The position numbers and the translations under genes are program-made. A stretch of DNA of 64,000 nucleotides. Source: Marsupella aquatica. Taxonomy: Eukaryota > Plantae > Marchantiophyta. This document shows, piece after piece, positions 36,801 to 64,000 of this stretch (position 1 is the first letter of the stretch; the number at the start of each line of letters is the position of its first letter). The notes under the pieces are model-generated. The model was not told the DNA's origin and made no database searches. It worked only from the letters and a program-made list of their open reading frames with translations. The DNA lies in assembly GCA_973895155.1 (NCBI GenBank), contig OZ316891.1, forward strand, positions 26,963,972-27,027,971. The letters are read 5' to 3'.

Positions 36801-37069
36801 TCATACCTAACCTAGACGTAAGAGTAAATACCCAACAATCTTCCCCTTGACTCTGGTCTAGGGGAGAGTAATACTGCCAATGTATATGATCCCTCAGCGG
36901 GAAGTTCTGGACAAAAACCAAACCGGTTTCCCTCTCTAACTAGAGCAAACCATAAGTAAGCCGTAGCCTAATACATAGGAATGAGGAAGAGCATATATCA
37001 GTAATTACAATGAATGTTAAGAAAACTCTACATGTGATGCAATTGCAAAACCTGCAATACGTCACGGTG

Positions 37070-41330: not shown

Positions 41331-42906
41331 ATGAGAAAATCACAAAAAATGTTGTTTTTCACAACTTCTCAAAAAACTCGAAACTCAACACCGCCGCGTA
41401 GCCCACAAAGCTAGGAGTCCAATACTGAAAACCGAAATCAAAATCGAAATTTGACGGAAAAGTTATTCAAATTTTGGTCGAGGTGGGTAAAACCTTGGGA
41501 AACTCCCCCGTTTTGACCACCTCAGGGAATAACCGAAATACCAAGTACAACCCATTGTCAGAATTGCGATGTGATTGGTGCGCTGCGTTGCCAACTTCAA
41601 TGGCTACGACCTCGCCGAAAAATAACCAAAAAAGTTACCGTTCGGCGAATGAAATCTTTGTCGGACGGTCAAAAAATAGCTCTCTGGTTTTTTGGAATAT
41701 TCTATGACCCTTGTACAGGCCCTGTGGGAATTTTGGAAGAACAATTGAGGGGCTGACATGTGTCCTCGAACCCCCAAAACCCCCCTACCACCCTTCGTCG
41801 TCGAAATCTGGTCGCGTGCGCAGAAAATACACACGGCAGAATGTACCCCTCGACACCAAACGCAAGATATCTCACTCAGGTTTTAACGAAATCAAGATCC
41901 GATTTCAGATTTGGAAACTAGACTCCGAGGCAATGAAGATCGATATAAGAAGCACCCAAAACGAGGAAAGAACGAGGGAGAAAAAAATTGGTAAAGATGA
42001 CAGATTTCTCTCAATTGCCATAGCCAATTTCGAATTAGATTTTCAAAGAGAAAAAAATGGTACCTTGTCAACAACGAATGTTGATCAATTGCACTTGGTG
42101 CCGTCACCAAGTCCAACAAGGTAATTGATTTTGCTTAGCCTTCCTCTTTGCATCAAAGAGCCAATCCTGGACTCAAAAACAATCGTCTTGCCTCAATCTC
42201 TCCGTTGAGTCAAAACACTTGACGCTTCTCCCTCCGAGTCGATTGCCAACTTTCTTCACAAAATCCAGAACGACGAAAACTTAGATCTCTCTGCACCACG
42301 AGCTCCGTTCAACAATTTCTTCACACCGTTAGAAAGCTCTTGCCCTGATCTATCCGTTGAGCCCATAAACTCCAAGTTCCATGCGATGGAACTCTGGAAA
42401 ATCCACCAACACTCAACGCTGGAAAAACCGTCATGAAATCCCGTCACGAACACACGTCACCTCCCAAGCATGCTCTGATACCAATTGTTGAGCATAGACG
42501 ACGATCGCAACGGCAAGCCCATGAACCATCCAACGCACAATAGTCGACACAAGAGATACGTGGTTCACCTCCTTGAGGCTACGTCCACGGGAACACACAA
42601 GAGAGCTTTACTGAACTCTAAGCCCGTCGGCTATACCGAGTCTCCACAGTGTAAGCTCTCCCTATCTCTCAAGTGGCTCCATAACAATGAGCCTTGGTTC
42701 TTCATCTCCAAGCACACATGCCTCTTATGATATAGTGTGCAACTTAGTTGTACCTAACCACATAGTTGTACCTAATCACGTAGTTGTACCTAACCACATA
42801 GTTGTACCTAATCACGTAGTTGTACCTAACCACGTAGTTGTACCAACCCACGTTGTTGTACCAACCACGTCATACCTAACCTAGACATAAGAGTAAATAC
42901 CCAACA

Positions 42907-44319
42907 CACCTCACTGATCCTAGGAAGACTGATAATGAAGAGGTGGAATCGGAGGAATGCATTAGGATTCTTAAAGACATTGCTCTTCGATCAAAAGGGG
43001 GATGGGAGAAAAAGCTATACACTACTGTGGAATGGAATCTGCCGGAGGCTGCCATGAACGTCAAGAAACTTTACAACTGTGCACTTCTTTGCTACTTTAC
43101 GGGCAAAACCCCGCTCCTATCTGTCTTTCGGGAGTGGGTCGAAGATGTGATGATGAGCCATGGGAATTGGCCGGTCCTGCAAGTCAAATATGTGGGAAAA
43201 AGTTTTTACATGATAGTCTTTGAACACCCAGACCATCGGGACCTGGCGCTGCAATTGGCCCCCTGGTTTATGGAACGCCGCTTTGTGTACACATTTGCGT
43301 GGGACCCATCATTTGACGTGAAAAGTGAGAGCTTCACTAAACTCCCAGTATGGATCGAAATTCCGTTCCGTGCCCTTACACTCGAAGGGTGCAGGCGCAA
43401 GATAGCTAGCTCGCTGGGACAACTGCTATACTATATTCAAGGAGACCAATTTAGCTCGTATCCCCACGATCGCGCCTGCATCTTATGGGACACAGATAAA
43501 GAAGTACCGGCCAGTGTGAAAGTAAGAATCCGTGAGGACATTGTAGTCTGGCAACCTATTACATTTCGCAACATCCCCTACCACTACTACAAATGTAATC
43601 AAAAGGGACACCTGGCGCAGAATTGCAGTGTGGAGATGAAGGCTACAGAAAGTGTGCTAGAAGATAATGAACAGCTTGATGAGAAGGATGACGAAAGGCA
43701 CTCAGAGGCGGATCCTGAGGAAGTAATTTGGGCTAGGGACAACGCGGCTGTGAGAGCGGCTTTTGGTGCTGCTGCGGTGCCCCACACTGAGGTGCCCTGC
43801 TCGGTGGAAGGTGAAATTGCGCAGGTTGAGATGGTTATGTGCCACCCCTTGCCTTTGGGGGAAAAGATTCTGTCTTATGAGATGATCCAACAAAGGAGCA
43901 AAGCTACACCAACCCCTCCTGCACCTAGAGAGCAGCACCGGACTGCTGTGATTCCACTACTGGAGGGATGTGGGAACCGGCTGGCCGAACTTGCCCCCCT
44001 TCCGCTTAGTACGAGCCTTTGTGTCCATTCTGGTCCCGGCCCTCCCCTGGTGGTGCGGGCACCTCAGAGTTGCTCCCCTGTGACACACCTGCGAGTTGGG
44101 ACTGCTAAACACGATGTTGTTATGAGTGAGATGGGAGAGGAAGGAACATTCTCATTTCATGATGACTCTGACGCGGAGATGTTTGAATACGAGGCATACA
44201 TTTCGAACAACAAACTAAAGGCTCGTGCTCGGAAACAGGAACTGCGTACACCTCCCACTGAGAAGAATGACAAAGCTAAAGGAATAGCTAAGAAACAACG
44301 ATCACTTAAATTCTTATGA
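42907..44319 (+). CDS. LINE ORF1 (DUF4283-like region plus degenerate zinc knuckle), C-terminal part
   Basis: APWFMERRFVYTFAWDPSF...LPVWIEIP...RACI...YYKCNQKGHLAQNC. In frame with 36058-36416 across the Copia TSD (EEEH|LTDPRK). Confidence 0.85.
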   Translation, partial: HLTDPRKTDNEEVESEECIRILKDIALRSKGGWEKKLYTTVEWNLPEAAMNVKKLYNCALLCYFTGKTPLLSVFREWVEDVMMSHGNWPVLQVKYVGKSFYMIVFEHPDHRDLALQLAPWFMERRFVYTFAWDPSFDVKSESFTKLPVWIEIPFRALTLEGCRRKIASSLGQLLYYIQGDQFSSYPHDRACILWDTDKEVPASVKVRIREDIVVWQPITFRNIPYHYYKCNQKGHLAQNCSVEMKATESVLEDNEQLDEKDDERHSEADPEEVIWARDNAAVRAAFGAAAVPHTEVPCSVEGEIAQVEMVMCHPLPLGEKILSYEMIQQRSKATPTPPAPREQHRTAVIPLLEGCGNRLAELAPLPLSTSLCVHSGPGPPLVVRAPQSCSPVTHLRVGTAKHDVVMSEMGEEGTFSFHDDSDAEMFEYEAYISNNKLKARARKQELRTPPTEKNDKAKGIAKKQRSLKFL

Positions 44320-44626
44320 GGCTTCATGTCTGATGCAGGAGGCACAAAAGGACTGTTGAGTGACTCCAGGGACAAAGCGACACTCACGCTGCTGATAGGG
44401 AATAAGGGTGATCATTCGCGTTTGACCCCCCTGCTCCCCTTATGATTTGTGGCGTTGTATCTGACTCCCAGATGGGGGTTGCTCCTTCTCTGACGGCAAG
44501 CAGATCGAGGAGCGCTGGGGTCAGCGGGCTGTCCCCGGGAGGATGCATCCGCCTTTAGACCATTGGGGGGGAGGGGGGCCTCTGAGGTGATATGCGACAT
44601 ATTCTATATCATCTTCATTACAAGGA

Positions 44627-46587
44627 ATGGTGGAGCTGTATAGAATTGCTTCATGGAATGTATGCGGACTTTGTGACACGAACAGGAAACACGTAGTCAA
44701 AAATTGGGTGCAATCTTTAAAATCACCTCTAGGAATTCTGGCACTTCAAGAGGTCAAGGCGGACCAATTTCGACTAGAAGTGGCGATGAGAGCGATTCTC
44801 CCTGATTACCAATGCTTCTCATCGGAGCCTGATGAAGGGAGAGGCGGCACAGCACTGCTCGTTCATCCTGCTCTGAAGGTTGTAGGATCGGGCACACTGG
44901 ACCTGGGCAGGGCTGTCTGGGTTATTGTAGAGGGGGAATCAGGGAGATTTGGGGTTGCTTGCATCTACGCTCCTAACTCACCTCGACTAAGGGCGTTGAT
45001 GTGGAACGATCTCAAGATGGGGCTACCACAGGAAAAGTGGATCATTTGCGGAGACTTCAATATGACAGAATGCCGAAGTGACTCTACTGGGGCTTCCCCT
45101 TTAATTTGTGGCAAAGAAGCAGAATTCTAGAGATTTCTAAAGATGCGATTTGACCTGGTGGATGTGTGGGATGTTAAAGGCGCAGCAGCGGGACCTATGT
45201 TTACGTGGAGGAGAACTCGGGACGGGGAGTGGATGCAGTCCCGGCTGGACAAATTCTATGTAAGTGAACAAGGATGGTGGATTGGAGAAATTAAGGAGCT
45301 TATCCATGATGGGGGATCTGCCTTGTCGGATCATGACCCTGTGATTTTGATAATGCGACTCTCTGAGAGGCCTCTGGAGGAAGGGAGAGGTCACTTCAGA
45401 TTTTTCATGGCTAACCCGGCTCTTCTGAGGAGAGTGGAGGACGTGCGGCTATTGGAGGCGGCTTGGATGCAGGATCGGGAAAGATTTGTGGACCCGCACA
45501 TCCGGTTTGCACGGGCTAGGAGCAGGCTAAGGAGGACCTACATTAAATTCCAAGCCAAGCCCAAAGAATCTGAGGAGGAGATGGCATTCTTAAGGGCGCG
45601 TTTGAGGACTCTTAAGACGTCTATTCTTGACTCACATTTGGAGAGCCATATGGTGGAATACATGGAAGCAGAAGACTCACTACATGCAGCAGAGATAGAA
45701 GAAGCTCATAGGGGTCGGCGTCTAGCGCGGGTTAAGTGGCTCGGGGAAGGAGATGAATCCACCAGATTCTTTTTCGCCACTGTGAAGGCAAAGCGCTCTA
45801 GGGAGACCATGTCCTCTCTGACAAAGAGTGACGGTAGCTCTATCACGGACCCCCAAAAAATTATAGAAGAAGTGGAAACCTTCTGTGCAACACTCTACTC
45901 GCCCCCAGACTATCCCAGGCTGAGAAAGCGGAGCAATTACTTGCCCGGGAGCGGCTTCTACGTCACACTCACTTTGCATTATCAGCCTTAGAAATTGAGA
46001 AGATGGATGCACTTCCAACTGCGCTGGAGGTGAAGGAGGTCTTATGGCTCCTCCCCAAGGACAAGTCCCCTAGACCAGATGGATTGACAGCAGAAGTGTA
46101 TAGGACGTGCTGGGAGTTCCTTGGCGAGGATCTTGTGGAGATGATCCAGGCCTTTTGGCTCATGGGAGAGCTTGACCCTGACATCTGCAATGGAATCATC
46201 AAGCTCATCCCTAAGAAACCTGAGAAGTGCTATATGAAAGACTGGCACCCACTCACAATGCTGAACACGGTCTATAAGGGGTTTAATTCTCTCCCGAATG
46301 ACGACTTGGTTGGGATTACTGCTCTTTGTGGGAGACTTGGCTTGAGATCAATCGGGGATGGCTGGTCTAGAGAGGACGATGGTTGGAGAGACCTGCCACT
46401 AAGATGGCAGACAATGAGAGGTTTCACATCTGAGCACAGGAGACTGGCTCTTGAATTCTTAGAGCTCCTTTGGAGCTCAAGTGCTTGCAGGTTTGACTGC
46501 TTCCTCTATGCCAAACAGTGGCGGTGGGTAGACAAGCCTGAGAATTTGAAGGACTTCAAGATTGCTAATTGCCGCGTCTACCAATTT
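44627..46587 (+). pseudogene. LINE ORF2: APE endonuclease and start of RT, followed by an internal deletion
   Basis: IASWNVCGL, LALQEVK, IYAPN, ICGDFN, SRLDKFY, LSDHDPV, EGDESTRFFF, KSPRPDG, WHPLTMLNTVYK, then a jump to the post-RT sequence GFNSLP. Stop at 45130 and a frameshift near 45915. Confidence 0.9.
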
Positions 46588-49500
46588 ATTTATTTATTTA
46601 TTTTATTTTTTTAATTAAAATTTTGATTTTATTCCGCATGAACCCCACGGATAGGGGGGACCAGCAGGCCAAACGGCAGCAGAAGCCACAAAGGGCAAAA
46701 GAGTGATAGGAGTCCAAGATAGTCAAGGACATCAGATCTCACAGATGTTGAATACTAGTATGAATCAAGTTTTCACTGTCACTCAGACAGTTGTATCTAA
46801 TCAACTCAAGAGTAAAGCAGAATCAAAATAGTGCCAGTGCAAGGGGACGAATGTCTTGTCAGGAGTATGGTCCTAAGGCTCATCAGTCAACCAAGCCTGC
46901 AAGGGTAAAAAGAGTGGGGGAAGTCAAGCAACTCGGAATGCCGTAATAAGATCAAGGGCAGGCATAAGAGCGAAAATTCCTAATCCTAAAGATATAAAGT
47001 AGGCCTATGATCAAGGACACAAAGGAAGCTAAGTAAACCATTAACTAAGAGCTTCTGTGGCCTAAAAAGGATCAAAGTGCCGGGTGTCCTCCTGCAGCAC
47101 CGCCATCCAGGATGGATTCAATCCTCCTAACCCCACTCCTGAGAATTCGGATGCGTTCTGTCTCTATCAGTCCCTTAGCACCTGAGAGGCGTCGATGTTT
47201 GCGGCTTAACAAAGAAGTAGACAGCACCGAAGTGGATGTGGTAACCGCATTCAAGTGGTCCAAAATCTCATAGATCACCAGCAATTGATCAAAGATTCTG
47301 TGTCGAGTTTTGTCAAAGGTTTGAGCATTACGGGCTAGCCAAATGCACCACAGGATCTGGTAAACCGTGTAAATCCGAAGAGAGTGAATAGGCAGTTTCC
47401 CTGCAGCGGAAAAAATTAGAGTGAATAAACTTGGTGATCCATCGCAGAGTGCACCCTCCATCCATCCGTGGACCTCCAGCCAACAGCAACAAGCATGACG
47501 GCATGAAAAGAAAATGTGAGGAATAGTTTCAATCGTCCCAGCACATAAGCCACAGCAGCCATCCGACTTGCCAATCCGTAGAGCACGGGAGCCAGAGAAC
47601 AAGCCTTGCGCAATAATCCGCCCAAGAAAGACCTTAGCACGGGTAGAGAGGTCAGAAGCCCACACAGTGTTCCACACTCTATTCCAATCCTCCTCCGGTA
47701 AATTTTCCCCCCAGATCCGGTTCAGCTGGGCGGAGTTAGTGCCTTTTAGGCGAAGCAACTCATAAGCACGTGCATTCGTTAAGTCAAAACGATTCATTCT
47801 CTCCTCCCGATCCAACCAGCGCCACATGCAGGTACGAGAAGCAGTAGCAGAAGCATCTCCCTCACAGGGAGAGCCACGGATCACACCAGCAAGAGAGAGG
47901 CATAAAGTCCTGTTGGGAAGCGTAAGGCCTCTCAGACGAGGTAGACGTAATTCAACATTTTTCCAAGTGCTATCAATTGTAGACCAAAAGTCCTGAATTC
48001 TCCTGATACCCAGAGAACCAAACGTTCTTGTTAGCAGCACAATATCAATCTCCGGTAAATTGTAGAATCCTTGTAGACAGCGGATAGTATCCTCAAATCC
48101 CCAGTGGCCAGGGATATGATCAGCCTCAGTAGGACAGAAAATCAAATTTGATCTCATTCTCTCCCAGGCACTCCACAACTGATTCGTATACGTAAGTCTC
48201 CCAAAGCTACGGGGGGTACAGAGTAGCAACTTGTCAGCCATAGAGTAAGAGCTTCGACGTATAGCCTTGTAGTTCCGCCATTTGGTAAGTCGAAGGTTTT
48301 CCGCGAACATGCAAGCCCATTCAGATTCAGGATGGTCCAAAGCGCCAGTAAACCACTTACACAGAAGGGCATCAGAGTGACTCTTGAAGTCCTTTAGGCC
48401 AAGTCCACCGTCAGATTTGGGTCGAGTCATCTTATCCCAAGCCACAAGTGGGATGCGTCTTCCACCCAGCGGGTTCGAACCCCACAGAAAAATTCTGTTT
48501 AAAGCAATCAGCTTTTTAGTCAAAGCAGCGGGAGAGAGTAGGAACATCATGTGATAGACCGGGATGGCCTGAAGCACATGCTTGATTAACAGTAGACGAC
48601 CTGTGAAGGAAAGAAAGCGAGTGGACCAGGATGCAAGACGTGCACTAATCCGGTCTAAGCAAAAGCAATGTAGTTGCTTCTCAGAAAGATTGGATCCAAA
48701 AGGTCCACCCAAATATCTGTGCACAGTGCCAGCAGGGCTGATTGTACAGCCAGTGTCCTGTAGCCAGCCAGGGATCTCTTCAAGTGCCAGGGGGATGATG
48801 GTTGATTTAGCCAGGTTGAGTTTAGCACCCGTAGCACACTCATAGCAGGTAATAGTGTTTCTGGCTTGCTCAAAAGCTATCACATCAGCAGGGATAAAGA
48901 GGCCCAGATCGTCAGCAAACAACCTAAAACAGAGGGTGAGGAAGGGGAGATTTTGAGTCCCTGCAAACGACCAGCAACAATCTCCGCCTGGCAGAAATCC
49001 ATTAGGGGCTGAGTAGAGATAGCAAATAGAAGTGGGGAGAGGGGGCACCCCTGCCGGACTCCTCTGCACATGTGAATATCAGCAGACCAAAGACCATTGA
49101 CAAGAACTTTAGAGCAAGAGTTGCTTAAGAGGGACCGTACCAAGAGAATGAAATGTGAACTAAGACCTAGAAGGTTCATAGTCTCCCAGATGTAGAGATG
49201 GTCAACCCTATCAAAAGCTTTCTCAAAGTCAAGTTGCAAAAAGAGGGATGGGGTCTGCGTATATTCAATCCAGTCGCTTGCCAACCAAGTAAGCGAGATA
49301 TTCTCCAAAATGTGTCGACCGGGAATGAAACCGGTCTGCTGTGGACTAATCATACGGGGCAGCAGCACCATCAGTCGTCGAGCAAGTAGCTTAGCCAAAA
49401 TCTTGTAGGTAATGGTAAGCATCGTCAGCGGCCTCCAGTCGCTCAGGCGCCGCTTGTCAGTCTTTTTGGGGATAAAGCGGATCACTCCATCCTTGATGCC

Positions 49501-49836
49501 ATAAGAAATATGACCAGTCCTCCAAAAGGCACAGATCATATCATAGAAATCAGCTTTCACAAAATCCCAAGAGGCCCTCAAGACCTCGGCAGTCATACCA
49601 TCCACTCCAGGCGCCTTGTCATTGGGTAGCATGAGCAGAGTATCATGTACCTCCTGTAAGGTAGGTAACATATCTAGACTTCTGTTCTCAGTGGCAGACG
49701 GGGAGAAATGAGTGTGTTCGCAAAACCTCCGACGAGCAGATCTCATCTCCATAAGTTCCACAGCACTTTGTTCAGGTGGAGAGTACAGTGATTCACAGAA
49801 TGTCTGAACCTCCTTGATAATCATATTTTCATCCCT
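46588..49836 (-). mobile_element. 5'-truncated L1-type LINE inserted antisense in the host LINE; RT and zinc finger with one frameshift
   Basis: (TTTA)n/poly-T tail at ~46584-46612. ORFs 48880-49896 (KAPGVDG, WRPLTML, LDFEKAFDRV, GVRQGCPLSP) and 47072-49069 (FADD, YLG, GGLG, CGLCAGTIETIPHIFFSC). Likely short TSD AATTT. Confidence 0.93.
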
Positions 49837-49841
49837 AATTT

Positions 49842-50474
49842 TTGAGGCCACAAATCTCAGTTTTCTCTCGGTGGAACCACATTTGGTCTGTGGCACGCTC
49901 TGAGAGCGACTGGGGCTCTGTCTGGTCTCAGCTTTGGAGTTCTGACTTGCCGGCTAGAGGCAAGACGTTTATCTGGTGCATTATTGTAGGTGGCCTTTTT
50001 ACTGGTGCGCGGGCACTACATTTGGAGATGAGCAACGGGGACTGTAAGCTCTGCTGTGGCACGGTGGAGACCATCCCTCACCTATTCATCTTCTACGTCC
50101 ATGCTGATTGCTGTTGGCGGTTATGTCAATCATTCCTGTGTGTACTCTGTTTGCCGTTTGGGCAAGGTTTGCTGCCTTTGCTAGATGCTGCTTTCAGGAA
50201 AGACCCTGCCCATGTTGCAAAGCTTTTTATCTTGTATCAGATCTTATGGTCTATTTGGCTTGGCCGGAACACGCACATGTTCCAGGCTGGTGGCAGTAGA
50301 GTCTTTGACTTGGGCCTGGTTCTCTCGGAGACGGCTGATAACCTTGATGCGGCTAGCCGGGGGCTTCCTCCGGGCTGGAAAGGTACCCGCATCCTTAGAG
50401 CCAAAACATGGATTGATGCCCTTCGTAGGAACTGGATACGACACGGCTGCGGCCGTATCACATCTGGCTTATGA
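49842..50474 (+). pseudogene. C-terminal zinc-finger part of the host LINE ORF2
   Basis: WSQLWSSDLPARGKTFIW...CKLCCGTVETIPHLF...YQILWSIWLGRN; continues RVYQF from 46587. Confidence 0.9.
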
Positions 50475-51072
50475 GCTGCTTGCCGTAGGGGCTGCTTTCA
50501 GTGCTTCTCTTATTGTATTGGGCCTTTTCACACTCTTGCTTTGGCCCCCATGTGCTTGTTTTCACATTGTTGCTTTGGTCCCCTTGTTGATTGGGGTCCT
50601 GGTTTGTGGCCTGTTTGGCTGTCTGTTTGCCCTGGTCATGGGGCTTTTCGCGGCCGCCATTATCTTTATAAAAAATCAAGGAAGAAGCAACAAATGTGTG
50701 GTAGAGTGGTTAGATTGTTAAATGATAATTTAATGACTTGAATTTGTTCCCGTGAGAGTGCTTCTCCAAAGAATTGATGTCAATCAACAAACAAAGTTAC
50801 TGATTAAAGAAATGTAGGGAAAATGGACTAGTAAGAATATCCTTTCAATTGGTCAATGGGGTAAGTTGAGGTAGATTGACAATCCCCAACAGATCAATAG
50901 GACCCTGGCTTTTTAAGATTCAGAATACAACAGAGCTTAAACCATAGCCAAATTCAGAATGAACATTCTACATTAATTAGAAATTGGAATGAATATCATG
51001 AATAGGTAGCAATCCAGGAAATTCTTTCAGGTCAATAAAGTATGATAGTTGTCACACCATTCTAGATGCTAT

Positions 51073-52834
51073 TGTAGTATATAGTGCTAGTTGAGTATGT
51101 ATGTTTTGTATGTGTGCTATTGGAGTTGATAGGGTTTGATTAGGTTTGTGTGGGAGAGTAGTTCTCCCTTGTGAGGCATCAAAAGGTCATCTTTTGATGT
51201 TGAGCCTTGGAGAGAGAGGAGCTCGAGTGTGGCTATGGTGGTTGTGAGCTCCGCTTGTGTAACGTGGAATCCTTGAGTAGTGCAAGGTGCGTTGGCTTGA
51301 CATACGTGTGTGATCGGATTGGTGCGGATCGATGGGGTATTGTTGACCGGAATTGTTGTGTTGATTTCTGAGAAGATTACATCGAAAGATCTAAGCTTCA
51401 AACTTTGTTGTGCGGATTGTGCAAACATAAGTTCATTCAAGATTTGATTGACGGTTTGTGGTACCTCGGATCGTGTTGTGTTGCTTGATTGGATCGTTGG
51501 TAGCTCGATCGTTTGAGAAAATCTGAAGTGGGGATCCAAGGTCTGATCTTCATTTTTGTTCAAACATTCTACTGCCGTGTTGTGACCGGTTTTTGGACAT
51601 AGCATGTTGGCAATTTGAAGGAGGCGTCGGTGGTGCGGATCAAAGTTGGCGAGAGGTGCTTGGGCTTCTGATCAGCGTTGTGCACTCAATTTGCTGTTTT
51701 ACGAAGAGACTGAGTCTTGATGTTGCAAAGTTGAGTCAATTAAGGTACTGCATGTTTGACTGTGCATTTTTTGTGACAAAACAGAGGTGAAAATATTGCG
51801 GGATTGACACGATTGTGCTATGCTGACAAACTGTATGTTGCAAAGTCTGATTGCCTCAGGTGTTCTTGTGAAGAAAGTGACTGTCGATAGTCGTGTATGT
51901 TGCCAAATTTGAGGCGTGGTCCATTGCGGAAGGGTTTGGCTAGGCGCTACGGTTAGGGTGGACAGTGTTGTACTACATTTTTGTGAGGGAAATTGGGACT
52001 CAAATGTTGTGAGATTGAACCGTTGTTGTTTTTGACCGACTGTACGCTGCCGTAGCCAATGTGCAATTTTGTGTGAAGAAAGCGGAGAAGTTGAGTTTGA
52101 ATGTTGCAAAATCTGAACCTAGTTTTGGCATAGCAAAGCGTTGCGAACGTGAAGGGCTCACTCTTTGGCTCATCTCGGTGTTTCGAGGCTTCAAGGCAAC
52201 TAATGGTAACTCGGGATGAGGGGCGGAGCACGAGTGGGCGGGCCAGCAAGCTGGTATGTGAAGAATAGTTTGCAAGGTGGTGAATTTGAAGCAGCCGATT
52301 TGGTGCATAACACAAGTGAGAGGTCACTTTCCCACACGCTGAACTATGTGGTTCTTATGAGCTTGTGTGTACACACACTCCTTTCTACATTGTTGTTAAA
52401 GAAATGAATACTTAGGAATTTTATACACATTCTCATTTGTTTATAGTGTCATTCTGGGTCAAATCATAAGGTCTTTCAAGGTTTTTGATGCTTCTAAATC
52501 TATCTAGATGCATGGATTGAATCAATTTTGCATGGGTTCTTAGCAATGACATTGAACATTGAGAGGCCTATTATGAAGGCCATATATTGAACATTATGAA
52601 CATTGTTTGATCGATGTGTGATCACTCTTGGTGTGGGGAGTTATTGTTTATCTCTTTTTGTTGATTGGATCCTCTCCACACATGTTTCCTGTTTATGCAC
52701 CATGTTAGTTTGGTGTGGGCGCTTGATTCCATAGGAGTGATTTGAGTTTGCAACTAGACATTCTAGTTGTGCTGCATATTTCTCTTCTGGCAATGTTGGA
52801 GTGATGTCCAACACATCATGGTGAGTGCTTGTGG
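51073..52834 (+). mobile_element. Candidate 5' LTR and PBS of the methyltransferase-bearing retroelement
   Basis: GT-rich non-coding stretch ending ACATCA (52818) and immediately followed by TGGTGAGTGCTTGTGG, about 270 bp upstream of Gag. The left boundary is a guess (TG at 51073 or 51195) and no second LTR is in the window. Confidence 0.4.
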
Positions 52835-53085
52835 TGCTGGCAAGGACAGATTGCCCTTAGGGTTAGCACATAGATTAGGTTAGATTGGTCATCACAAATT
52901 CTTTTGGTGCTGTTGGGCTACCCGATGGACAACGGACCGGTTTCACTCAAAGTGGGGTGCAATTTTGGCCAGCAGTATTGGTAGCAGGCAGCAGTGCTGC
53001 TTCACACAGTGATCCAGACAAAGATTTGGTTACCAATTCTCCTCATCACCAGGTGGTTGCACCATTGCTGTGGGATATGGAGGAG

Positions 53086-54140
53086 ATGTATGGGGCCACA
53101 AAGGGCCCAAGGAGGTTCTCTGGTGTAGTTGGCACCATTGACTTAGATGATTTCATCCAAGAGTTTGATACGTGGTGCAACATGTAGACATTGCATAATG
53201 CCACATTGTTCACACCTTTCATGGCATGGAAGGGATTGTTTGGCATTTGGAGAGGCCACCCATGGACGATTACCATGAGTTTTGGAAGGCTCATTTGCTA
53301 GACATTGAGGCATGGAGACACCATTGGTCACCCAATTATGTATCCATCACCTATGGCACAAGTGCAAGTGCCCAACCTATTGCTGTTGTTGTTGCTGTTG
53401 CTACTACTATAGCTTCCTCTAGCAGCACTAGTCAGACTAGCACCTCAACAACATCCACGACCAGCACCTTAGCAACATCCACTTCCACTACTACCGGTGT
53501 TGTAGTGTCAGGCGCTACAGTTGTGCCAACATTTAACCCTATGGTGGAGTTCTTTGAGGCATTGCGCCAAAACTACTAGGGTGTGAGAACAGATAAGTTG
53601 AAGGGTTTGCAAGAGTTTCAGCGTAAGACTGAAGAGAGTCTACGTGGGACATACACCTGTATGAAGAAATTGATTAACGTCACGAAGGGAGTGACAAAGG
53701 CCCAGGCAGTCCAATTTTGGTATGCCATTGTGGATAGGGAGTTGTTGCGTAGAGTGAGGGATGCCACTCTACTTAGGGATTCAGATCCCACATTGGCAGT
53801 TGTTTTTGCATTTTCTAAGCGCATTGAGCTCAATATGGTGAATGAGAAGGTGGTGACTTCCGGATTTACCAAGGAAGCACCAAAGGCTGCATCTACATCC
53901 ACACCATAGCCTACTGCACGGAAGAGCTAGAGGAAGAAGTCCACTACACGAGAGTCTACCAGCGAGAGACCTGTGCCCTCTTATGTTGGATAGCAATCAA
54001 GATGTTGGACCTGTGATGGGGATCATGCACAAAGATATTGCCCAGATCATAGAGTATCAGGGGGAGCATCAACGCCTGATTAGCGACATTGTGATCATTG
54101 TGGAGCTCCTGGACACACCAAGGATAGGTGTTTCTCACTC
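53086..54140 (+). pseudogene. Retrotransposon Gag with two zinc knuckles
   Basis: PRRFSG...DLDDFIQEFDTW; KLKGLQEFQRKTEESLRGTYTCMKKL (gag major-homology-like); CWTCDGDHAQRYC (54003-54041) and CDHCGAPGHTKDRC (54090-54131). Several stops and frameshifts. Confidence 0.85.
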
Positions 54141-54989
54141 CACCCTAAGTTACGAAGGGGAGGATCCCGTACACATGATCAGGGAAGAGGAGGAGGAGGT
54201 AGAGGTGGTGGACGTGGCTGTGGCATGCCACATGTAGGGAGACAGGGAGGTGATGTGCCCTTGTTGTAGCCATAGATCCAAAGGATGCTAAGATTGTTCA
54301 ATTGGAGCAACAGCTAGCTGCCATGGCTAGTTCCCAGGCGAGACCTACTTTGGGTGATGAGACATCTACATCCTATGGACTTTCCACATCCCATGGTTGT
54401 TCCATAGCTTATGGAGCTGATGGAGACCTTGCCACCATGGGATTCATGTGTGGCACTGCACACATTGATGCATCAGCAACTTTGACACGGGAAGCAACAA
54501 AAGCTCTTGAACCTAGAGGGGCTGTTGTGGAGTTGGATCCTCAGAGAGGGGATGCTCGTTGTCAGACAAAGCTTCTCGAGTCTTTCATAGTGTCAGAGAT
54601 AGTGCAAACTACCTCTATGAACCCGGTTTGGAAAAACCCTAGTGGGGGTAAGTTGGCAAAATCAGGTAGTGATGCAGTAGGGATGACAGGTACCCTGTTG
54701 GGGGCGGCTACTGCCATAGTGCGCACCCCATTATTTTGAGCAACAAACATGCTGAACTTGGGAGTTGGTCCTCCATGAGTGTTCAGATTGGCAGCTACAC
54801 TCTGTGAGGACACTCCAGTTGTTGCTTCCTATGCAGAAGCAGTTTGCAGTGTTGAAGCAATGAAGACCATGCTACCTACTGCTACTAGTGAGACATGGCA
54901 TGCAGCATCAGCAAGGTTGGTGGATTTACCAACACGTCCTGCATTTGAGAGGACGTGTCATTGGATAATCGGAGTGGTATGTTCTGATT

Positions 54990-55340
54990 AGTTGGGGCCT
55001 TTTGGAACAGTATATCAGCCAGAGAGAGTGTTGGTGGATACTGGTGCTCAACCCTTGATGTTGGGTAAGTCTGCCATATATACATGGATTGGGATTGCGT
55101 CCAGAGGATTTGGAGGATTGTCCCTTTCCCATTCAGACTTCATTTGGGGGACCTACACCTACACATCATACCACCAGGAGACCACTTGATTTGAGGATTT
55201 AGGAAGGTCATGCAACACATAGCTCACAGATACAGGCGCGAGCTATTTTGACTAAGGCAGAGTCATATGATGTATTGGTGGGATGTACAATGCTCTACCC
55301 CATGGGATTTATTCTTGATTTTTGGGATGAATCAGTGTCA
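54990..55340 (+). pseudogene. Retropepsin-type aspartic protease
   Basis: RVLVDTGAQPLML (DTG at 55037) and downstream SYDVLVG...GFILDFW (~55263-55327). Confidence 0.8.
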
Positions 55341-55739
55341 TATAGACTTGATTGACAATCAAGATGCTCAATTGAGCAAGTTGCCAGTGCAATTTAGTGG
55401 ACCTGTGGGAGGCCCTAATTCACACTATTGTCTTTGGCCGCATTCAGTGGTGTGATTACTGGACCTGATGATTTGATTGAAGATAATGCACATGCAACAG
55501 ATGTTCCACCATTGGAGGAGTCACATGAGGAGCAGATCATGCAAGATTACCTGTTGGCAGTGTGGCGCCACCAGTGTGGGGCACTAGACAGGCCTTGCTA
55601 CAGGCAACGACACGATTGGTACATGATGCATGGCGTCATGCTTTTACACCATAGTCAAGAGTAGAGCAGTGTCTTGCAGATGGACCAGTGACTCTTTCAC
55701 CATTGGATACCACTCCTATTGCTTGGCAGTATCCACCGG

Positions 55740-56665
55740 AGGGTATTGGCTTGTTGGATCTATTTGGTGTGATTAGCACTGGATTGGCTAGACATCACTT
55801 CTTGGCGGGGCCGTCAAGATGACCAGATGTCCGTACGGTACGGACACCAAATTTTGTCAAATTTTTTCTCAATTTTTATGGACACTGATGATCCTCGCTA
55901 CCCCTTATCAGCATGCACTACCTGTTGATATTTCATTGCTAGGGGCGGATCATTTGCATCATTTTGGCCCCATTAATTTGGTGATTGCTGGTTGGCCATG
56001 TCAGAGCCAATCTAGAGCTGGCATTGGTCATGGACTTCATGATCCACGCTCTGCATTGTTTTGGGAGATGTTATGGGTGCTATGTCATCTCCAGCTACAT
56101 TAGACATAATCTCCAACATACATTTTGGAGAATGTGCCATTGTTAGTTGATGATCATTGTTGGATTGTTGCTAGTGTTCACCAAGTGAGGTCTTGGATTG
56201 GACCTGTTGTGTTATTGGATGTTGCATGTGTGGGTTCTCGTGCACATCATCCACGCTTGTGGTGGACTAATTTGATCCCATGTGAGGTGCTAAAGTGCGC
56301 ATTTGACAACATTCCACGCTCAATAGCCTTAGTGGAGGATGATATTTTGGACCCAGGACGTCGTGCACAGGGTGTGACCCAACCTGACAGACCTCCATTG
56401 GCAATGGTCAATGTCGTTGGGCGTCCATGTTGTGGATTACCCACTCTTTTAAGTCACTCTGCTTCATATGCATTCAAAGCAGGTGGCTCTGGACTTGTGT
56501 GGGACACAGCTCTCTAGCAGTTAGTGGAACCTACTGTTGATGAGAGGGAGCGTGCTATGGGATTTTTGACAGGCACCACTGCAATTGCCTTGGTGTCAGA
56601 GAGTTCACGTGGCTAGGTCCTTGGTCAAGCAATGGATTTGAATTGCTTGACTTGGATTATCAGCT
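55740..56665 (+). pseudogene. C5 cytosine DNA methyltransferase domain embedded in the retroelement polyprotein
   Basis: Ordered motifs: I LLDLFGVISTGL (55751); IV LVIAGWPCQ (PC at 55996-56001) followed by SRAG...GLHDPRSALF; VI YILENV (ENV at 56128); VIII GSRAHHPRLWW; IX EPTVDERERAMGF (~56527); X VLGQAMDL (56617). Contains in-frame stops. Confidence 0.92.
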
Positions 56666-56875
56666 TGGGAGTAGCTGAATAGTTGCGGATGCGCTCTGCT
56701 GGTGTTACTAATCGTCCATTAGTGAACTTGCGGTCCATTAAGACAGTGTTGACCACAACTGGGGGCAAGCAAATAGTCCATGGACCTATGGCAGGATTGG
56801 CCAAGGCTGGACAGATTGTTGAGCAGGAAAGGACTGCTCAATCTATTGCCAAATAGCAATCATCGGCTATCTCTT

Positions 56876-57000
56876 CTTTTTTAATTTTTAATTTTTTAAT
56901 TTTTCATTTATTCCGCTTGAACCCCACGGAGAGGGAATCAGCAGGCCCACATGCAAAAGAGGCCCTTAGAGGCAAAAGAGAACAAGGCAGACCGGTCAAA
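56876..57000 (-). mobile_element. LINE 3' end (poly-A tail) of the same family as the LINE at 46588
   Basis: Poly-T run then TTTATTCCGCTTGAACCCCACGGAGAGGG...CAGCAGGCC, matching TTTATTCCGCATGAACCCCACGGATAGGG...CAGCAGGCC at ~46628. Confidence 0.85.
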
Positions 57001-57200
57001 AGTCTATTTGAGCAAATGAAAGTTCCCTACCAACAGTGCATCTTGGTGCCTTATCTACAGTCAAAATAGGTGAAAACTTTGAGGTTTAAAGAGTTTACTA
57101 GATCTCTTCACTATTCACTGTCCAGTCCGTAGGTCTATTTCAACTTCTAACAGTCACTACTCGTCTTACTTGCTCCCTTAAAAGTAGGAAGTGCTGACAG

Positions 57201-57913
57201 GGTTGAAGAAGCATGTGTCATTCTTTGAGTTTATTCTAAAGCGAACAAAACAGGAAGAACCAAAGCGACATTGGACAACTCTCATCAATTATTGGAATGA
57301 CATTGTAGATACTCTACAGGGTGAGCAGGTGCAATATGAACCTGAAGGTGCACACAACTTGGAATACGGGTTTTGGCCTTTATCAATATGGAGAGAGCAC
57401 GTTCCACCAGAATATCAAAATGTGGCATGTGAGTTGGAGGCAACAGTGGATTATGTGGGACCAGCAAAAGATAAACCTCCTGAGAGTTTTAACCCTAGGG
57501 TTGATGTTGTGAAGGGCTGTTATGTGTTGGTACGGCCGGACGACTCAAACCTGGATGATTATCCCATCCATATGGGGTTAGTTGTTATAGATGTGGTAGA
57601 AGGACCAGTGAATGAACAAAACCTTCTTACTCATGTATGTGGCGTTGAGTGGTTTAGACCATTTATGGCAAAGAAGCAACATGGTCAATCAGACTGGCAG
57701 CCAAGAGAGCGGTGGGCAGATTCTTGGGATAAGAAATGGGAACGTGATCCAACTCCAATATACAAGGAAGCTGAGACAATAGATGTTTCCTCTGCCTTGT
57801 GGTGTTTCAAAGCACGCAAAGGACCAGTGACAGGGCTGGTAGGAATTCCAAAGAATGTTGCTGCCAAGGCAAGAGACTATCTCTTGACATGCATAGCAAG
57901 TGACAAATCCTAG
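57201..57913 (+). CDS. Uninterrupted terminal exon of an unknown Trp-rich protein, probably the C-terminus of a DNA-transposon protein
   Basis: 240-codon open frame preceded by the acceptor-like GCTGACAG. Motifs GFWP..W, FNPRVDV..G.YVLVRP, VEWFRP and W..SW..KW. It sits between LINE fragments. Confidence 0.5.
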
Positions 57914-58008
57914 ACAATAATGAAGCATGTAGTTTAGCATACAGTTTAAAAGGCAACTCAGAATAGTAGTAGCCAGAGAACTCAAGTTTAGACAAGTCTT
58001 ATCGTCTA

Positions 58009-58543
58009 AGTTAGTTAGTTGGTTAGTTTATTTAAGATATAATATTAGTTAGTGGGGCCTTAGTTTGGTGATATTAAGGCATGATATTATTGACATTCAA
58101 ATGAATGTCCAGTAGACATTGTAATATACAACAATCCTATTAATAAATAATAATTATAGTTACACCTTCAAGTGAACTCAACTTTCAATGATTTCTGATT
58201 TTATATGGTTCCATGCCTGATTGAGTCAAAGCAATAGAAACTAACTAATTAAAGGGTGATACTATGATTGTAGGTCACGCACCCTGGTGCGTGTCAATCT
58301 TTTTTTGTATTCAACCCTATAGTAATTAAATAGACAAGTTAGTTAGTTAGTTGGTTAGTTTATTTAAGATATAATATTAGTTAGACAGTGGGGCCTTAGT
58401 TTGGTGATATTAAGGCATGATATTATTGACATTCAAATGAATGTCCACTTAAGTAGACATTGTAATATACAACAATCCTATTAATTGTTGTAAAGGGTGG
58501 TCAATCTTTTTTGTATTCAACCCTATAGTAATTAAATAGACAA
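58009..58543. repeat. Interleaved direct duplications (~135 bp and ~44 bp)
   Basis: 58009-58144 recurs at ~58341-58485 with small indels. TCAATCTTTTTTGTATTCAACCCTATAGTAATTAAATAGACAA occurs at ~58294 and 58501. Confidence 0.9.
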
Positions 58544-59391
58544 TTGAAACAATGAATGACAGTTTAATTAAGGATTTGTGCATGGATCAAGAGGTACTTG
58601 ATGTCATTTAGTGATGCATTGTTATAAAGATGTAGTTATAAAGATCTTGCAACAAAACATTTGAAGTTTTTGACTATCCCACCAAATGTTGAAGAGGTTG
58701 ATCATTCATTAACTTATAATATTTAGATAAAATTGGAATTAATCTAATACTTCAGTATTCCTTAAATTGGGGTTTTACGTTCTGTTTCTATATGCTTCAA
58801 TGCTACAGTTAATCGTTTTTGTTTCTTGTCAGAGAGGGAAGTAGTCCCTACCAGCACAACCGTGATGTGATCCATGCTCTCTAAAATTACTTGCATCGGA
58901 TCAAGAAGACCTTAGCTTTTGTTGAGAGGTCTGAAGACCACATCCCCTTCCACATTGAGCTCCATTCAGTCTCATTAAGTGTCACACTCCAAATGCGATT
59001 CAGCCTTTCCCAATCATAACCTTTAGATCGTAGTGTGACGCCGCTGGTATTGAGTAATTCGGTCTAACCGCACTTAGCACGCGCGTTAGGGGTATCTTAG
59101 GCTGTTATTATTAGCATAACGACAATACTTAGGTAGCCATTATAAGTAGGAAATCCTTAGTCAATAAAGGGAATCCATGTTTGGGCTGCCAGCAGGTCGC
59201 CATTCGCATGCCCGGGTTGTGAGCGTGTAATGGGTCCTTTTTCCCCCTCCCTCGGGTCTGTATAACGAACTCTGGGGGCGGCCACTCACACGAGCTGACC
59301 CGGACTGGAGAAGGGGCCGGTACACTGTGAGCATGAAAGGCTCGACCTATAAGTGACGAGGAGGCGTCGGGCGATCGACGAACTCTCAGGG

Positions 59392-59398
59392 TATAAAA
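59392..59398 (+). promoter_or_regulatory. TATA box typical of an LTR promoter
   Basis: TATAAAA followed by GGGGG and a pyrimidine-rich leader, 100 bp before ATG 59498. Confidence 0.55.
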
Positions 59399-59497
59399 GG
59401 GGGCCGATCCTTTGCAGTGCACCAAGCTCTCCAGTCCACGCGCCAGCTTCGATCCCAACTCTCTCGCTTTTCCTTAGTCACCTGCTATCTCCTCTGA

Positions 59498-62046
59498 ATG
59501 TTGCACACGATCCTTTCCAGTTCGGCCATACAATTCTGGACTCAGTTCCTGTCTATTGGAGGACACTTGGCCGACTCATTGAAACATGCCAACCCACGCC
59601 GTTCTGAGATCGAATGCGAATACGAGAGAGCCATCCGCCTAGCAGACCGCCACCACTATCTCCTTAACTTTGAGTACCCGTCCCAGAGCAAGCTTTACCG
59701 ACCCGAGGAGGTATCAGGGTACTTTTTTGACGGAAGCAAATACATCGGCTTCTGGGAGGCACTGCTTCGCCTTTCGGACGAGGTCTTCAATATTCCGGGC
59801 ACGATCGACTTACAGAGGCACCACTTTGACCACATCAATGGCGAGTTCAACACTACCCGGTCGATAGGACCATCTCCACTTGCGTCGAAGAACCTCCACC
59901 GGCACTTGCAAAACTTCATGGCAACTCTACCATCAACGACCAGTGCCGGCCAACCCGTACCCGCACCTACACCTCCTCGGCCTCAGCCAAGCCGGTCCCC
60001 GCCACCGGTTCCACCACCTCTCCGAGTACGATCCATGGTGAATGCGGTACATATCAGCTCCAAAGACGAGGAGACTCACCCTCCTCTGAATCAATGACCA
60101 CGGGGTACGAACAACCCCACACCACCCCAGCAAGCCCGAGGGGACAACACGGTAACGCTAGCGGCCCCAACACCAATACTCACGGCAATCGTGCTACCAC
60201 CACCTGACCGAGAAGATGGAGAGATGTCCCCTTCTTCTAGTCACCCCGGGAATCAGTCTCGAGGTAGGGAGCCCGTAGCCGTATCCGGGTTGCCTTTGGC
60301 CACGGTTGCGGTAGCCAAGTTGACCATGCATCGCATGGGGGACAACGTTCACAAGAACATCCTCCACCCCAAGCATGCATGCTATCTGAAGACCCAGGGG
60401 TTTGAGCACCTCGCCTCCCTCCCTTGGAACGGGAGCAGGTATTACGGGCAGGATATGATGGAGTTCATTCAGAACTTCGACGAGGCCCGTCAACAAACCC
60501 AAGCACACGGGAGAGTGATGTGTCTCGATGAGGCACGTCTGAAGATGATTTTTGGCTTACCCGAGGGGATAAACTAGGTAGAGTCGCGGGCTCCCGGGGG
60601 CAAGGGAGCTAAATACCAGTCATCTAGCTTCCCGACCGAAGGGGTAGTGGACAATGGGTTCTTAATGAGGACGTGCCTCATCCTGGAGGTAGCAGAACGC
60701 CTAGAGTTCCAGCGGTATGCCCTCCACATGATGGAACCTAGAGGAGAAATATCGGCCGCTCAGGTCATCCAGGTGGAGAACTATCGGCCCAGGAAGTGGG
60801 CGTCCTTCTTTTTCAAGAAGTTCCACGAGGAGATGGAGCGGAGAAGGAAGACTTTGTACCTTGGTGGGAGGGCGTACTTTGCTAGCCACGTCAAAATCAT
60901 CCTCGAGTGGTACGCTCATTTCGACCGCCAAAGCCTCCCGCGGCTCAATGAGCCCAAGCTAACCCTGCCAAAATGGGTGTTCCCAGCCCAAGTAAGGCGA
61001 CGGCAGCCCAAGGCCCAAAGTCTGCAACTGCAAGTCCTGCTACCCCGGCCTCGCCGCTGCCGCCCAGCCAGGCATACCCATTGACGTCATCGCGACCTTA
61101 GACGCGATCAATCGGGACAATGTCGTGGAAGCCGGGCCGGATGAAGCCATACCCGAAGCAGATACCACGGTGGCTAGGGAGATTCCACCACCCCCCCATG
61201 GTGGCATAGGAGAACCACCCACCTCTAGTGGAACCAGCCCCTTCGACCGACTTACCTCAAGGGTTGGATATGTCCACTCCTACTCCCGCACGGGTTGAAG
61301 TCTGCCCGTGCCCGAATTGGGAGGGACACAGTCTAGACCATCCGAAACTCTTTGCGTCGGGCACATTTCTGAACGGGTTGTTGGGAGATTTCTCGCAACA
61401 GATCTCTCGAGACACCGGGGAATACATGGCCCGGAGGGTGGCCTACTTCTTCAACCAGAAGTTGGTTGCGGCAGTAAGGGCAGGACATGCGCAGGCAGAG
61501 ACCGCGCAGAGAATAGAGCAATATCGGGTTGAGTCTGCCTACCTGAAGGACAAAGTGGCAACCCTAGAGGCTGAACTCCAGCAACTACGGCCTCAGGTAA
61601 TGGCCACAAAGGACCAGGTCACCGAAGCTAGAGCCCAAGCAGCGTTGGCAGTACAGGCCGGGCTCAAAAAGGATGCCGAGATTGCGCGGCTCCAAACCAA
61701 GATTGACGGTTTGCAGGGGCAAGCCGTCAGTTGGCAAAAGGATCTGGAGGAAGCTGACTGCAGGTCTCAGCGGGACACAGCTAAGATTGACGCTCTAAAG
61801 GCAGAGGTGGCACGGCTTCAAGGAGAAGCCACGAAACAGGCCTAGTTGGTGGACAAGCTGACGAGCGACACCCAGCAACTGGAGGAAGCATGCCAGGAGG
61901 CCGCGGAAGAGGCAGACGCGGCAAAGCGGGAAAACGAATCTCTGCTGGACCAGGGCCAGCTACTCAAGCAGGACGCCGACAGGCTCAGAAGGCAGCGGGA
62001 TAGCCGTTCCCACTCAGGCGGCTCTGGCAAGCGTGCCAGGCATTAG
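59498..62046 (+). pseudogene. ~850-codon ORF of unknown function: Pro-rich linkers, plant-transposon-protein/PMD-like core, C-terminal coiled coil
   Basis: ORFs 59498, 60191 and 60647 share one frame separated by single stops; 61228 and 61846 share another. Core MMEFIQNFD...GRVMCLDEARLKMIFGLPEG; heptad-rich LKDKVATLEAELQQL...KIDALKAEVARLQ. Confidence 0.7.
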
Positions 62047-64000
62047 CGGCGGAGTAGGATTAGAGTAGAGTTAGGAATAGCTTAATTAGGCTATAGGGAC
62101 AAGCAACTGCCCTAAGTAGCACAGCACTACCATGCTGTACAACCTGCATAGATTAGGATCTTCTAATAAGACAAGTCGTTTTCCGGCCTGACAGCCAACT
62201 TAGTTAGGACCTTAGCTAGCGAATCTTCGGGCGCAAGGGCACTCCGTTCCTCGGCCCTTAGTATTTAGTGCACCCCTCGGTAGAGGCAGGGGGTTTTTAG
62301 TCTCAGTGTTGGACATCCGCAATATGTGCGGGGAGTCCCGACCTCTAGGAGTGAAAGAGTACCGAGGGGAGGGTATGGGACTAAGCTTGTTGGGCGAGCG
62401 CGGAGCCGGGCTCCGTTGTAGTGTACACCCTTGGCTTTGGACCTGTTCATTCCCGAGCTTTCGGGTCCACTAAGTGTATGCATATGTCTCCTATGTAGTA
62501 AAATCCTTCCCCATTATTTCCTTCGTGTAAATCGAGATTGTATGCTTGCGCGTGTATGTATGTGTGAATCTTGTGTATAGGTGCCAACGCTCGGCCGAAC
62601 GCACTACCCAAGTCGGGCACGGGGTGCAGCTTGCGGGTAGTGGTTGCGAGCCTGGGTTGAGTACCCATATCATCGAATCCGGATCGAAGGCAGACAACAC
62701 GAAGGCTTAGAAGCCCGTAAGCCGGGGTCGATCCTGTTATCGATTAAGGTACGTTTCGGCGGTGGAACACAAACCATACCTAGGAGGTGTCCGTATATAA
62801 CCATAGGCGCACTTAGCGCTAGTTTACGTGAGTTAGGTGCATTTCGAGCATCCCTCCCTGCCCAAACACTCATTTTGACGAAGGATGTGCCTGTCTAAGC
62901 CGAAGCCCAGGTTAAGGCCTAGGCTGACGACGTGACACGCAGCATCTCGTACACCCTCAGATTTGTTGTGGCAAATCTCCTCATCTCAGTCTTGGTGTCA
63001 TTCCATCTCCAAAGTCGAGCATCAACACCAGATTCCCTGCCTCCAACAGTAGAACAACAGATCACATTGTATAGAGCAGTACATTGGACACGGCCGACAG
63101 AGGTGAGTCCTCTCATTCTTTGCAATATCCTGGAGATATCTTTCAAGTCCTGGTTCTCAGTAGACCATAGATCTTTTACTTTCCTCATTCCTAAACTATC
63201 AAAAGTTCTAATGATTTCCATTGAGCATTCTTCTGGTAGTTCATAGAACCCCTGCATACTCCTTACCAAATCTTCAAAACTCCAATGCCCAGGTATTGTG
63301 CCCTTGCCTGGGAAAAAGATCAGTTGCTCTCTAGCCATCTTCCATGCATTCCATAGTTTCCCTGTATAGACAAGTTTCCCAAAGTGCCTGGGAGTGCTCA
63401 ATAGTATTTTGTCACTCAAGGAGTACCAGCTTCTTCTCACCGTCTTATAGTACGTTGCGCCATTTGGTTAACCTGAGATTCTCAGCATACATTTGAGTCC
63501 ACTTAGAGCAAGGGTCATCTAATGCTCCAGTGAACCACTTGCATAGCAAAGAGTCAGAATGGCTCCTTGAGTCCAAGCTCGCCCTCCAGCTTTGGTCTAG
63601 TCATCTTCTCCCATGCCACTAGAGGAATCCTTCTTCCCCCTTGCAGATTAGTTCCCCATAAGAATGTCCTATTAAGTTTCATCAACTTCTTAGCTAGTAC
63701 CTTAGAGGATCAAATAAACATCATATGGTAGATAGGGATTGCATGTAAAACATGTTTAATCAGCATCAGCCTTCCTATGAAGGATAGAAATTGTGACGAC
63801 CAGGATATATGACAGTCGGGCACCTATTCTGTCTAGGCATAAATTATGTAATTGTGTCTCTAGAATTTCTACTCCAAAGGGAGCACCCAGATATTTTTGT
63901 ACCTCTCCCTTTTCGCTAATTTTGCATCCAGTGTCCCTGAGGCAATCAGGGATCTCATCCATAGTGAAGGGGATAATGATTGATTTTTTCAAATTCAATT

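Follow-up and report, generated by a model that had tools for sequence, protein, structure and literature searches.

The 64,000 nucleotides of Marsupella aquatica (Marchantiophyta) contig OZ316891.1 analysed here, called the window throughout and the reference for all coordinates, contain at 51050-56862 on the + strand the decayed 5' half of a Ty3/Gypsy retrotransposon of the long terminal repeat (LTR) type, in which the first open reading frame (ORF1) encodes Gag, zinc knuckles, an aspartic protease (PR) and a DNMT3-like methyltransferase. A preliminary description of 53086-56860, made from the sequence alone, had proposed a Gag-like region, two knuckles, a DTG protease and a C5 DNA methyltransferase in this order on one strand, and three-frame translation of 52800-57100 recovers the same order on the + strand. 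The Gag capsid-like domain (approximately 53077-53900) is broken between frames 1 and 3 and shows 46-69% identity to Marchantia ORF1 N-termini, the homologous Marchantia region scoring 0.95 against Retrotrans_gag clusters. The two CCHC zinc knuckles at 54003-54135 were recognised by sequence, the one at 54003 reading CWTC..H..C and being short by one residue, the one at 54090 reading CDHC..GH..C; zf-CCHC is found in the relatives P0096, P0029 and P0484 (P numbers denote related proteins, L numbers related loci from a metagenome scan). The protease (VLVDTGAQP...YDVLVG) occupies 55019-55346 with the DTG at 55037 and a frameshift near 55079. Pfam profiles for Gag, knuckle and protease found no match on the window's own broken frames; the knuckle and protease profiles are matched in relatives, the intact ones matching Asp_protease_2 and gag-asp_proteas, mostly weakly.

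The methyltransferase at 55745-56700 has the linear motif order I-X and is recognised by PF00145 (E=2e-8, 34 bits at a family cut-off of 22) in the frame 55900-56853 with X placed at five stops. Motifs I (55760), IV (WPCQ, 55993), VI (ENV, 56128), VIII, IX (ERERAM, 56542) and X (GQAMD, 56626), all named in the preliminary description, are present, with the qualification that motif I is substituted to FG-V (FGG to FGV), that motif VIII reads H-P-R with its first Arg replaced by His, and that motif II is lost. The latter fell into a deletion of about 47 codons, which alignment to relatives places at 55790-55905 and which is occupied by foreign filler DNA; contigs of related sequences show that other copies retain the normal sequence here. 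The filler at 55796-55900, in which there is a short palindrome and a stretch of 31 nt matching 30474-30505, is perhaps a scrap of another repeat. With 20 in-frame stops and five frame changes in ORF1 in addition to the motif II deletion, the copy is dead, as had been stated.

The element extends further than first described. ORF1 ends with the in-frame stop TAG CAA TCA (56854-56862), which has a CARYYA context and is a predicted readthrough site into the reverse transcriptase (RT). RT and integrase (INT) are not visible in the window, as noted before, because a minus-strand L1-type long interspersed nuclear element (LINE) inserted just after the stop. This LINE covers 56877-64000, contains nested insertions (approximately 57000-58890, and 59040-62930) and runs off the window; its pieces at 56886-56980, 58896-59033 and 62934-63998 match a LINE at 46600-48820 in the same order. 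A true 3' truncation as the sole reading of the missing RT was rejected, the LINE interrupting the element, whose 3' half possibly follows past 64000. Many related sequences cover 50500-56860 (contigs from four runs), none spanning the whole stretch, and their depth gives no copy number.

On the 5' side the element starts upstream of the Gag region, at a likely 5' terminal repeat A (51050-51381), the LTR part opening TGTCA; a hairpin lies within it at 51177-51199. The A repeats of all relatives open with the same TGTCA, and local alignment of the window A repeat with that of L040 scores 121.5 and exceeds every one of 200 shuffles (mean 92.6, sd 8.7, maximum 117.5), a weak indication of kinship. 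A predicted self-priming primer-binding site at 51379-51390 pairs with 51189-51200 over 12 bp including one G-U; such a site was found in 15/5000 shuffles, and the minimum free energy fold closes its 12-bp stem. The leader (51391-53076) gave zero matches in an Rfam search, and two Marchantia models (P0015, P0051) have an N-terminal extension that matches its part 52888-53076. An ATG-less frame 5' of the first Gag ATG is open over 52879-53076 and resembles the relatives' N-terminal extensions; a start of ORF1 upstream of this ATG, at a non-AUG codon or by splicing, is possible.

The family to which this copy belongs was assembled from longer proteins, 60 of 2669 candidates matching at E<=0.001, and its nearest named members are bryophyte ones. 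Among these 60 proteins, with a best identity of 75%, are 15 from Marchantia polymorpha, one from Calypogeia (Calypogeia fissa) and others from two Sphagnum species and further assemblies, and the relatives are collinear with the window from Gag through the end of the methyltransferase. A second protein search (best 120 of 186) adds methyltransferase fragments of M. paleacea and Riccia sorocarpa, and cluster look-ups add further full-length ORFs of 1280-1332 amino acids (aa); the 583 clusters at E<=1e-30 are an upper bound because the profile takes in some integrase columns. Near-intact ORF1 copies are present in Marchantia polymorpha (Mp4g09160, Mp5g06330, Mp5g06860, MpVg00370, MpVg00540). 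A metagenome scan using the decayed ORF as query gave 248 stretches with none confirmed, and viral contigs gave only two distant DNMT matches without retroelement domains. The family member P0158 is labelled as a protein of a bacterial metagenome-assembled genome (Obscuribacterales) and probably represents mis-binned eukaryotic DNA.

Other copies of this Gag and protease do adjoin the methyltransferase: among the best 80 of 99 metagenome loci, 59 of them distinct, the protease lies directly before the DNMT in 64/80 and the RT directly after it in 43/80, corresponding to 40 of the 50 with room for it, and 14/80 continue to RNase H (RH), integrase and PHD finger. Complete relatives thus read Gag-PR-DNMT-RT-RH-INT-PHD. 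The Gypsy-like layout suspected from the protease position is thereby settled as Ty3/Gypsy, by the PR-RT-RH-INT order and by Ty3 Pol as best PDB match of the relatives' RT (E=3e-86). The integrase matches rve and H2C2 and keeps D-D-E. Pfam scans of full-length relatives found a PHD finger and no chromodomain, and no tyrosine recombinase among the full-length proteins. An assignment to DIRS was rejected on the DDE integrase, one to Copia on domain order and RT. In the DNMT tree the Sphagnum-type loci cluster with a S. troendelagicum protein.

The family profile of the methyltransferase has its best match in DNMT3A (E=2e-24), compared to 2e-9 for DRM2 and 3e-7 for M.HhaI, and for an intact relative the structure model (pLDDT 89) matches DNMT3A-DNA structures with a TM score of 0.73. 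Over the 60 proteins, the motif IV Cys is retained in 55, the motif VI Glu in 58 and the two motif VIII Arg in 55 and 55, the remainder being mostly gaps. Many algal-type relatives in P0396-P0534 deviate at motif IV, where G-W-E-C takes the place of G-W-P-C, and at motif VI, which is ENT or ENA. The DNMT is under purifying selection between lineages: a comparison of those of the window, L001 and L006 gives a dN/dS of about 0.16 (dN 0.26-0.29; dS 1.65-1.87 and near saturation, a point to be held against it). Among sibling dead copies the ratio is 0.5-0.6.

Two features go beyond the preliminary description, a conserved stop between DNMT and RT and split end-repeats. Where the window ORF1 stops, L001 reads TAG CAA CCA, followed by a stop-free in-frame RT-RH-INT ORF of 766 aa, and TAR-CAA (TAR CAA CCC) is present in 36/37 aligned Sphagnum-type loci, the 29 distinct ones being made up of 19 TAG, 9 TAA and 1 TAC (the frameshifted RT rows of L025 were excluded from this comparison). 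Most intact Gag-PR-DNMT proteins have their C-terminus 78-164 residues past motif X, and P0007 and P0067 (75% identical) share the end point of the window ORF1. CARYYA after a stop codon is a readthrough signal of plant viruses (PMC4132726). Since the stop separates the DNMT from the RT, the methyltransferase lies on the Gag side of the point at which Gag/Pol expression is usually controlled and would be made at Gag level, presumably in large amounts.

In complete relatives no ordinary pair of complete direct LTRs around the coding region was found. The layout is A-coding-B-A-B in L040 and L072, with the 3' B-A-B additionally in L028 and L038, and A-coding-B in L080 and L062. These elements start with TGTCA and end with (G)ACA, i.e. 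TG..CA, and five of six distinct loci with both ends show exact 4-bp target duplications (L040 AAGG, L072 AAAG, L080 GCCA, L062 TTGA and the rearranged L029 CACA). The B repeat opens directly after a G-rich tract and the A repeat closes at the self-priming site, which in L040 pairs over 16-17 bp with a stretch inside A (z=-2.7); therefore the LTR of reverse transcription should be B+2 nt+A. At the A|B junction both predicted ends of the complementary DNA (cDNA), the primer-site end and the tract-side start, are fused. The B|A junction resembles a palindrome, reading (G)ACA-NN-TGTCA in 7/7 junctions listed, and would provide the ends of the integrated element. Within elements, A1/A2 and B1/B2 have diverged to an equal extent (92/94% and 84/86%), as expected if both were copied in one cycle. 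Split repeats, TG..CA ends, 4-bp duplications and a palindromic B|A junction together fit integration from a cDNA circle that is cleaved within the LTR, the simplest reading of the repeat layout.

The Gag-knuckle-PR-DNMT order is also found in Klebsormidium nitens GAQ93235.1, which we take to be a copy of KnitGypsy-Dnmt3, and in Closterium GJP34393.1, so that the family has members in bryophytes and streptophyte algae. As the order is common to these algae, the family most likely represents KnitGypsy-Dnmt3 (de Mendoza 2018) in its land-plant branch and not a new capture, and we regard its identity as a land-plant version of a type known from algae as almost certain. Another order, RT-RH-DNMT-INT-PHD, is present in the chlorophyte Scenedesmus (P0407, KAF8056149.1) and many further proteins, Hariotina (P0269/P0271) being placed there by DNMT clade and Pfam content; it is the commoner order among cluster representatives and was not found in the literature searched, as far as its accessible text goes. 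DNMT and RT trees, built without host DNMT3, reference Gypsy RT or outgroup and omitting 16 near-identical cluster members, each divide the two orders with a support of 99 (FastTree). In an enlarged DNMT tree, which omits four off-frame rows and holds no outgroup and no Klebsormidium RT, the division is weak (support 78) and GAQ93235.1 falls among the rows with the DNMT before the RT. Vertical descent from streptophyte algae would fit this distribution.

We propose a model according to which the window holds a dead copy of a streptophyte Ty3/Gypsy lineage with a DNMT at Gag level, readthrough, cDNA methylation and circular integration, and assign a probability of roughly 0.6 to this explanation as a whole. 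ORF1 (about 1280-1330 aa) would be the major product, with RT-RH-INT-PHD probably made by occasional readthrough, and the protease is predicted to free the methyltransferase inside the particle. Reverse transcription is very probably self-primed, as in Tf1/Tcn1. For the following steps we lean only slightly towards the route described: the true LTR, B+2 nt+A, would begin at the polypurine tract and reach as far as the primer site, the cDNA ends would be joined and the integrase would cut GACA-NN-TGTC, a two-LTR circle giving A-coding-B-A-B and a one-LTR circle or B-B recombination giving A-coding-B. With a similarly narrow preference, the DNMT would methylate the cDNA, probably at CG, and the new copy would arrive pre-marked; methylation of cDNA or of host DNA by the family's DNMT, as suggested earlier, remains an inference. 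The joint claim that an ancient green-lineage Ty3/Gypsy clade, near-intact in Marchantia, provides a DNMT3 at capsid stoichiometry through stop-codon readthrough, pre-methylates its cDNA and integrates as a circle at the LTR palindrome is put forward tentatively.

Several observations, named here and in the following paragraph, weigh against this model or favour other explanations. For the window copy, dead and with no RT visible, one might think of a chance insertion of a host DNMT3 retrocopy into an already dead Gag-PR element; this has a negligible probability given an identical fusion point in dozens of loci from several genera, the existence of intact ORFs of 1280-1330 aa, DNMT and RT trees that divide alike and the failure to find the DUF3444 of host plant DNMT3, and is ruled out by the collinear intact relatives. 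Nor is the enzyme a processed host pseudogene, being of DNMT3 type without DUF3444 and clustering with transposon DNMTs in trees that lack host DNMT3. At the stop, the Sphagnum-type CAACCC is one base off CARYYA and is accompanied by an ATG 6 nt past the stop, L033 reads TAG TAG CCA, and no DNMT/RT stop exists in the sub-lineage of L076 and L078-L080 or in P0431, P0536 and P0541; the stop-less sub-lineage means that Gag-level expression is not required. RT-RH-INT might instead come from reinitiation, splicing or a subgenomic RNA, with the methyltransferase still at Gag level, which would suit this ATG of the Sphagnum-type copies, the TAA in 9/29 distinct loci and the Marchantia and Sphagnum gene models P0012, P0014 and P0043 that join ORF1 to RT across the stop. 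We consider it improbable, since ORF1 and RT share one frame in unbroken copies, three lineages with differing surroundings (window, L001, Sphagnum-type) have retained TAG-CAA, L001 and the window lack an ATG at the stop, a change from TAG to TAA is compatible with G-to-A decay, and the joining gene models are automated predictions.

The circle route has points against it: the duplication of L021 contains a one-base mismatch, the repeats were read in relatives assembled from short metagenome reads with the window copy providing a 5' half only, and B lies upstream in 0/20 5' ends, although many A-B-A-coding-B copies should result from a two-LTR circle if its two sites were equal. The circle route leaves this missing mirror form unexplained, and A-coding-B could derive from B-B recombination. 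An extra template switch or unusual processing, yielding a linear cDNA that terminates in A and B for ordinary insertion, would account for A-coding-B-A-B in the absence of A-B-A-coding-B and for 4-bp duplications, which are ordinary for a Gypsy integrase. This linear route is possible and still the less probable one, as the A|B junction is an exact fusion of primer-site end and tract-side start, A-coding-B with duplications is the product expected of a one-LTR circle, and the last B is not copied by any standard priming route. Regarding the enzyme, cDNA methylation has to be reconciled with the inactivity of the Klebsormidium enzyme in yeast, called inconclusive in the available text of that report (PMC5890265), and with an uneven CpG depletion, the CpG figure being 0.30 for the window ORF1, 0.27 for L001 and 0.29 for L076 but 0.60 for L006 and 0.82 for L033, with 0.50-0.57 for the window Copia and LINEs. 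Both findings, together with GWEC for GWPC in many algal-type relatives and Gag-level amounts beyond the need of two cDNA copies, would be understandable if the DNMT were kept for another role, i.e. nucleic-acid binding in the particle, RNA methylation or action on host chromatin or rival elements. We hold this to be rather unlikely in view of the nearly invariant catalytic Cys, Glu and Arg, the complete DNMT3A-like fold of the structure model and the parallel DIRS DNMT3 of Symbiodinium, reported to methylate CG de novo (PMC5890265).

KnitGypsy-Dnmt3 of Klebsormidium was described with DIRS-like repeats (de Mendoza et al. 2018, PMC5890265) and shares with the present family the Gypsy domains, an intronless DNMT3-type enzyme and the A-coding-B-A-B arrangement. 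It has DNMT and RT in one ORF, as is also the case in L076, L078-L080 and P0431, whereas the window lineage has an in-frame stop between them, and its host is an alga whereas the present family resides in land plants; the accessible text of PMC5890265 contains no analysis of termini, duplications, priming or integration route. SymbioDIRS-Dnmt3 likewise combines a DNMT3-type domain, which methylates CG de novo in yeast, with split direct repeats (PMC5890265), but is a tyrosine recombinase element, in contrast to the DDE integrase, TG..CA ends and 4-bp duplications found here. Tcn1/Tf1-Sushi elements and the Chlamyvir chromoviruses (PMC6317226) are alike in Ty3/Gypsy RT, in the self-priming that is predicted here and described for Tcn1 and Tf1, and in non-seed plant or algal hosts, and the Chlamydomonas elements Gypsy-7a_cRei and REM1 (PMC9940879) in the PHD finger; by their descriptions, as available, all of these have ordinary paired LTRs and no DNMT. 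EpiLTRs and DAM-LTRs (bioRxiv 10.64898/2026.05.21.726589) are LTR elements with methyltransferases too, yet their DNMT is sister to DNMT4 and located at the pol end with DAM and chromodomain, and the authors set it apart from streptophyte Gypsy-DNMT3. The DNMT3 enzymes of plant hosts (Yaari et al. 2019, PMC6453930) have the same linear motif order and DNMT3-type fold but a C-terminal DUF3444, whereas the present enzyme sits inside a Gag-protease ORF. Streptophyte retrotransposon DNMT3 is mentioned without land plants in the text available of PMC12344493 and of the EpiLTR preprint, and such elements go unmentioned in that of 10.1101/363937, 10.1101/2021.02.12.428880, PMC6453930, PMC11982613, PMC9985172, PMC6317226 and PMC9940879. 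In the literature so covered there is no report of copies from bryophytes, of the stop or of the route of integration; bryophyte sequences may be contained in sources outside this search, namely subscription papers, Repbase, figures and the supplementary DNMT tree of the preprint.

The remainder of the window contains an exon of a host MATE transporter at 20190-20825 (PF01554, E=3e-26), at 27858-28949 a strongly strand-skewed array made up of degenerate repeats of 35 bp and 19 bp and, on the - strand at 36416-42902, a Copia element, a recent insertion, whose near-identical LTRs contain 18-bp tandem repeats, are 6069 bp apart and are 100% identical over the stretches compared. Two L1-type LINEs in opposite orientation and a LINE 3' fragment (49839-50474) occupy 42880-50474. 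The MATE fragment, the Copia element and the L1-type LINEs agree with a land-plant genome. The LINE following ORF1 carries a nested ORF of 241 aa without Pfam match (57188-57913) and is split in its own ORF by the GC-rich insertion at 59040-62930, which has several ORFs, including a coiled-coil ORF at 61210-61845, without a specific Pfam match.

As a summary, methylase-encoding transposons are present in bryophytes, which is to be compared with the statement in the accessible text of PMC6338049 that land plants 'such as tracheophytes' lack them. Since 2018 the role of retrotransposon DNMTs has not been settled, the hosts described being difficult to manipulate; the near-intact copies of Marchantia polymorpha make it accessible in a genetic model for which methylation mutants exist. 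If true, the circle route would depart from the rule that linear cDNA ends are used by integrases, placing a retroviral-type integrase on a route otherwise taken by recombinase elements, and such elements would escape annotation by paired LTRs.

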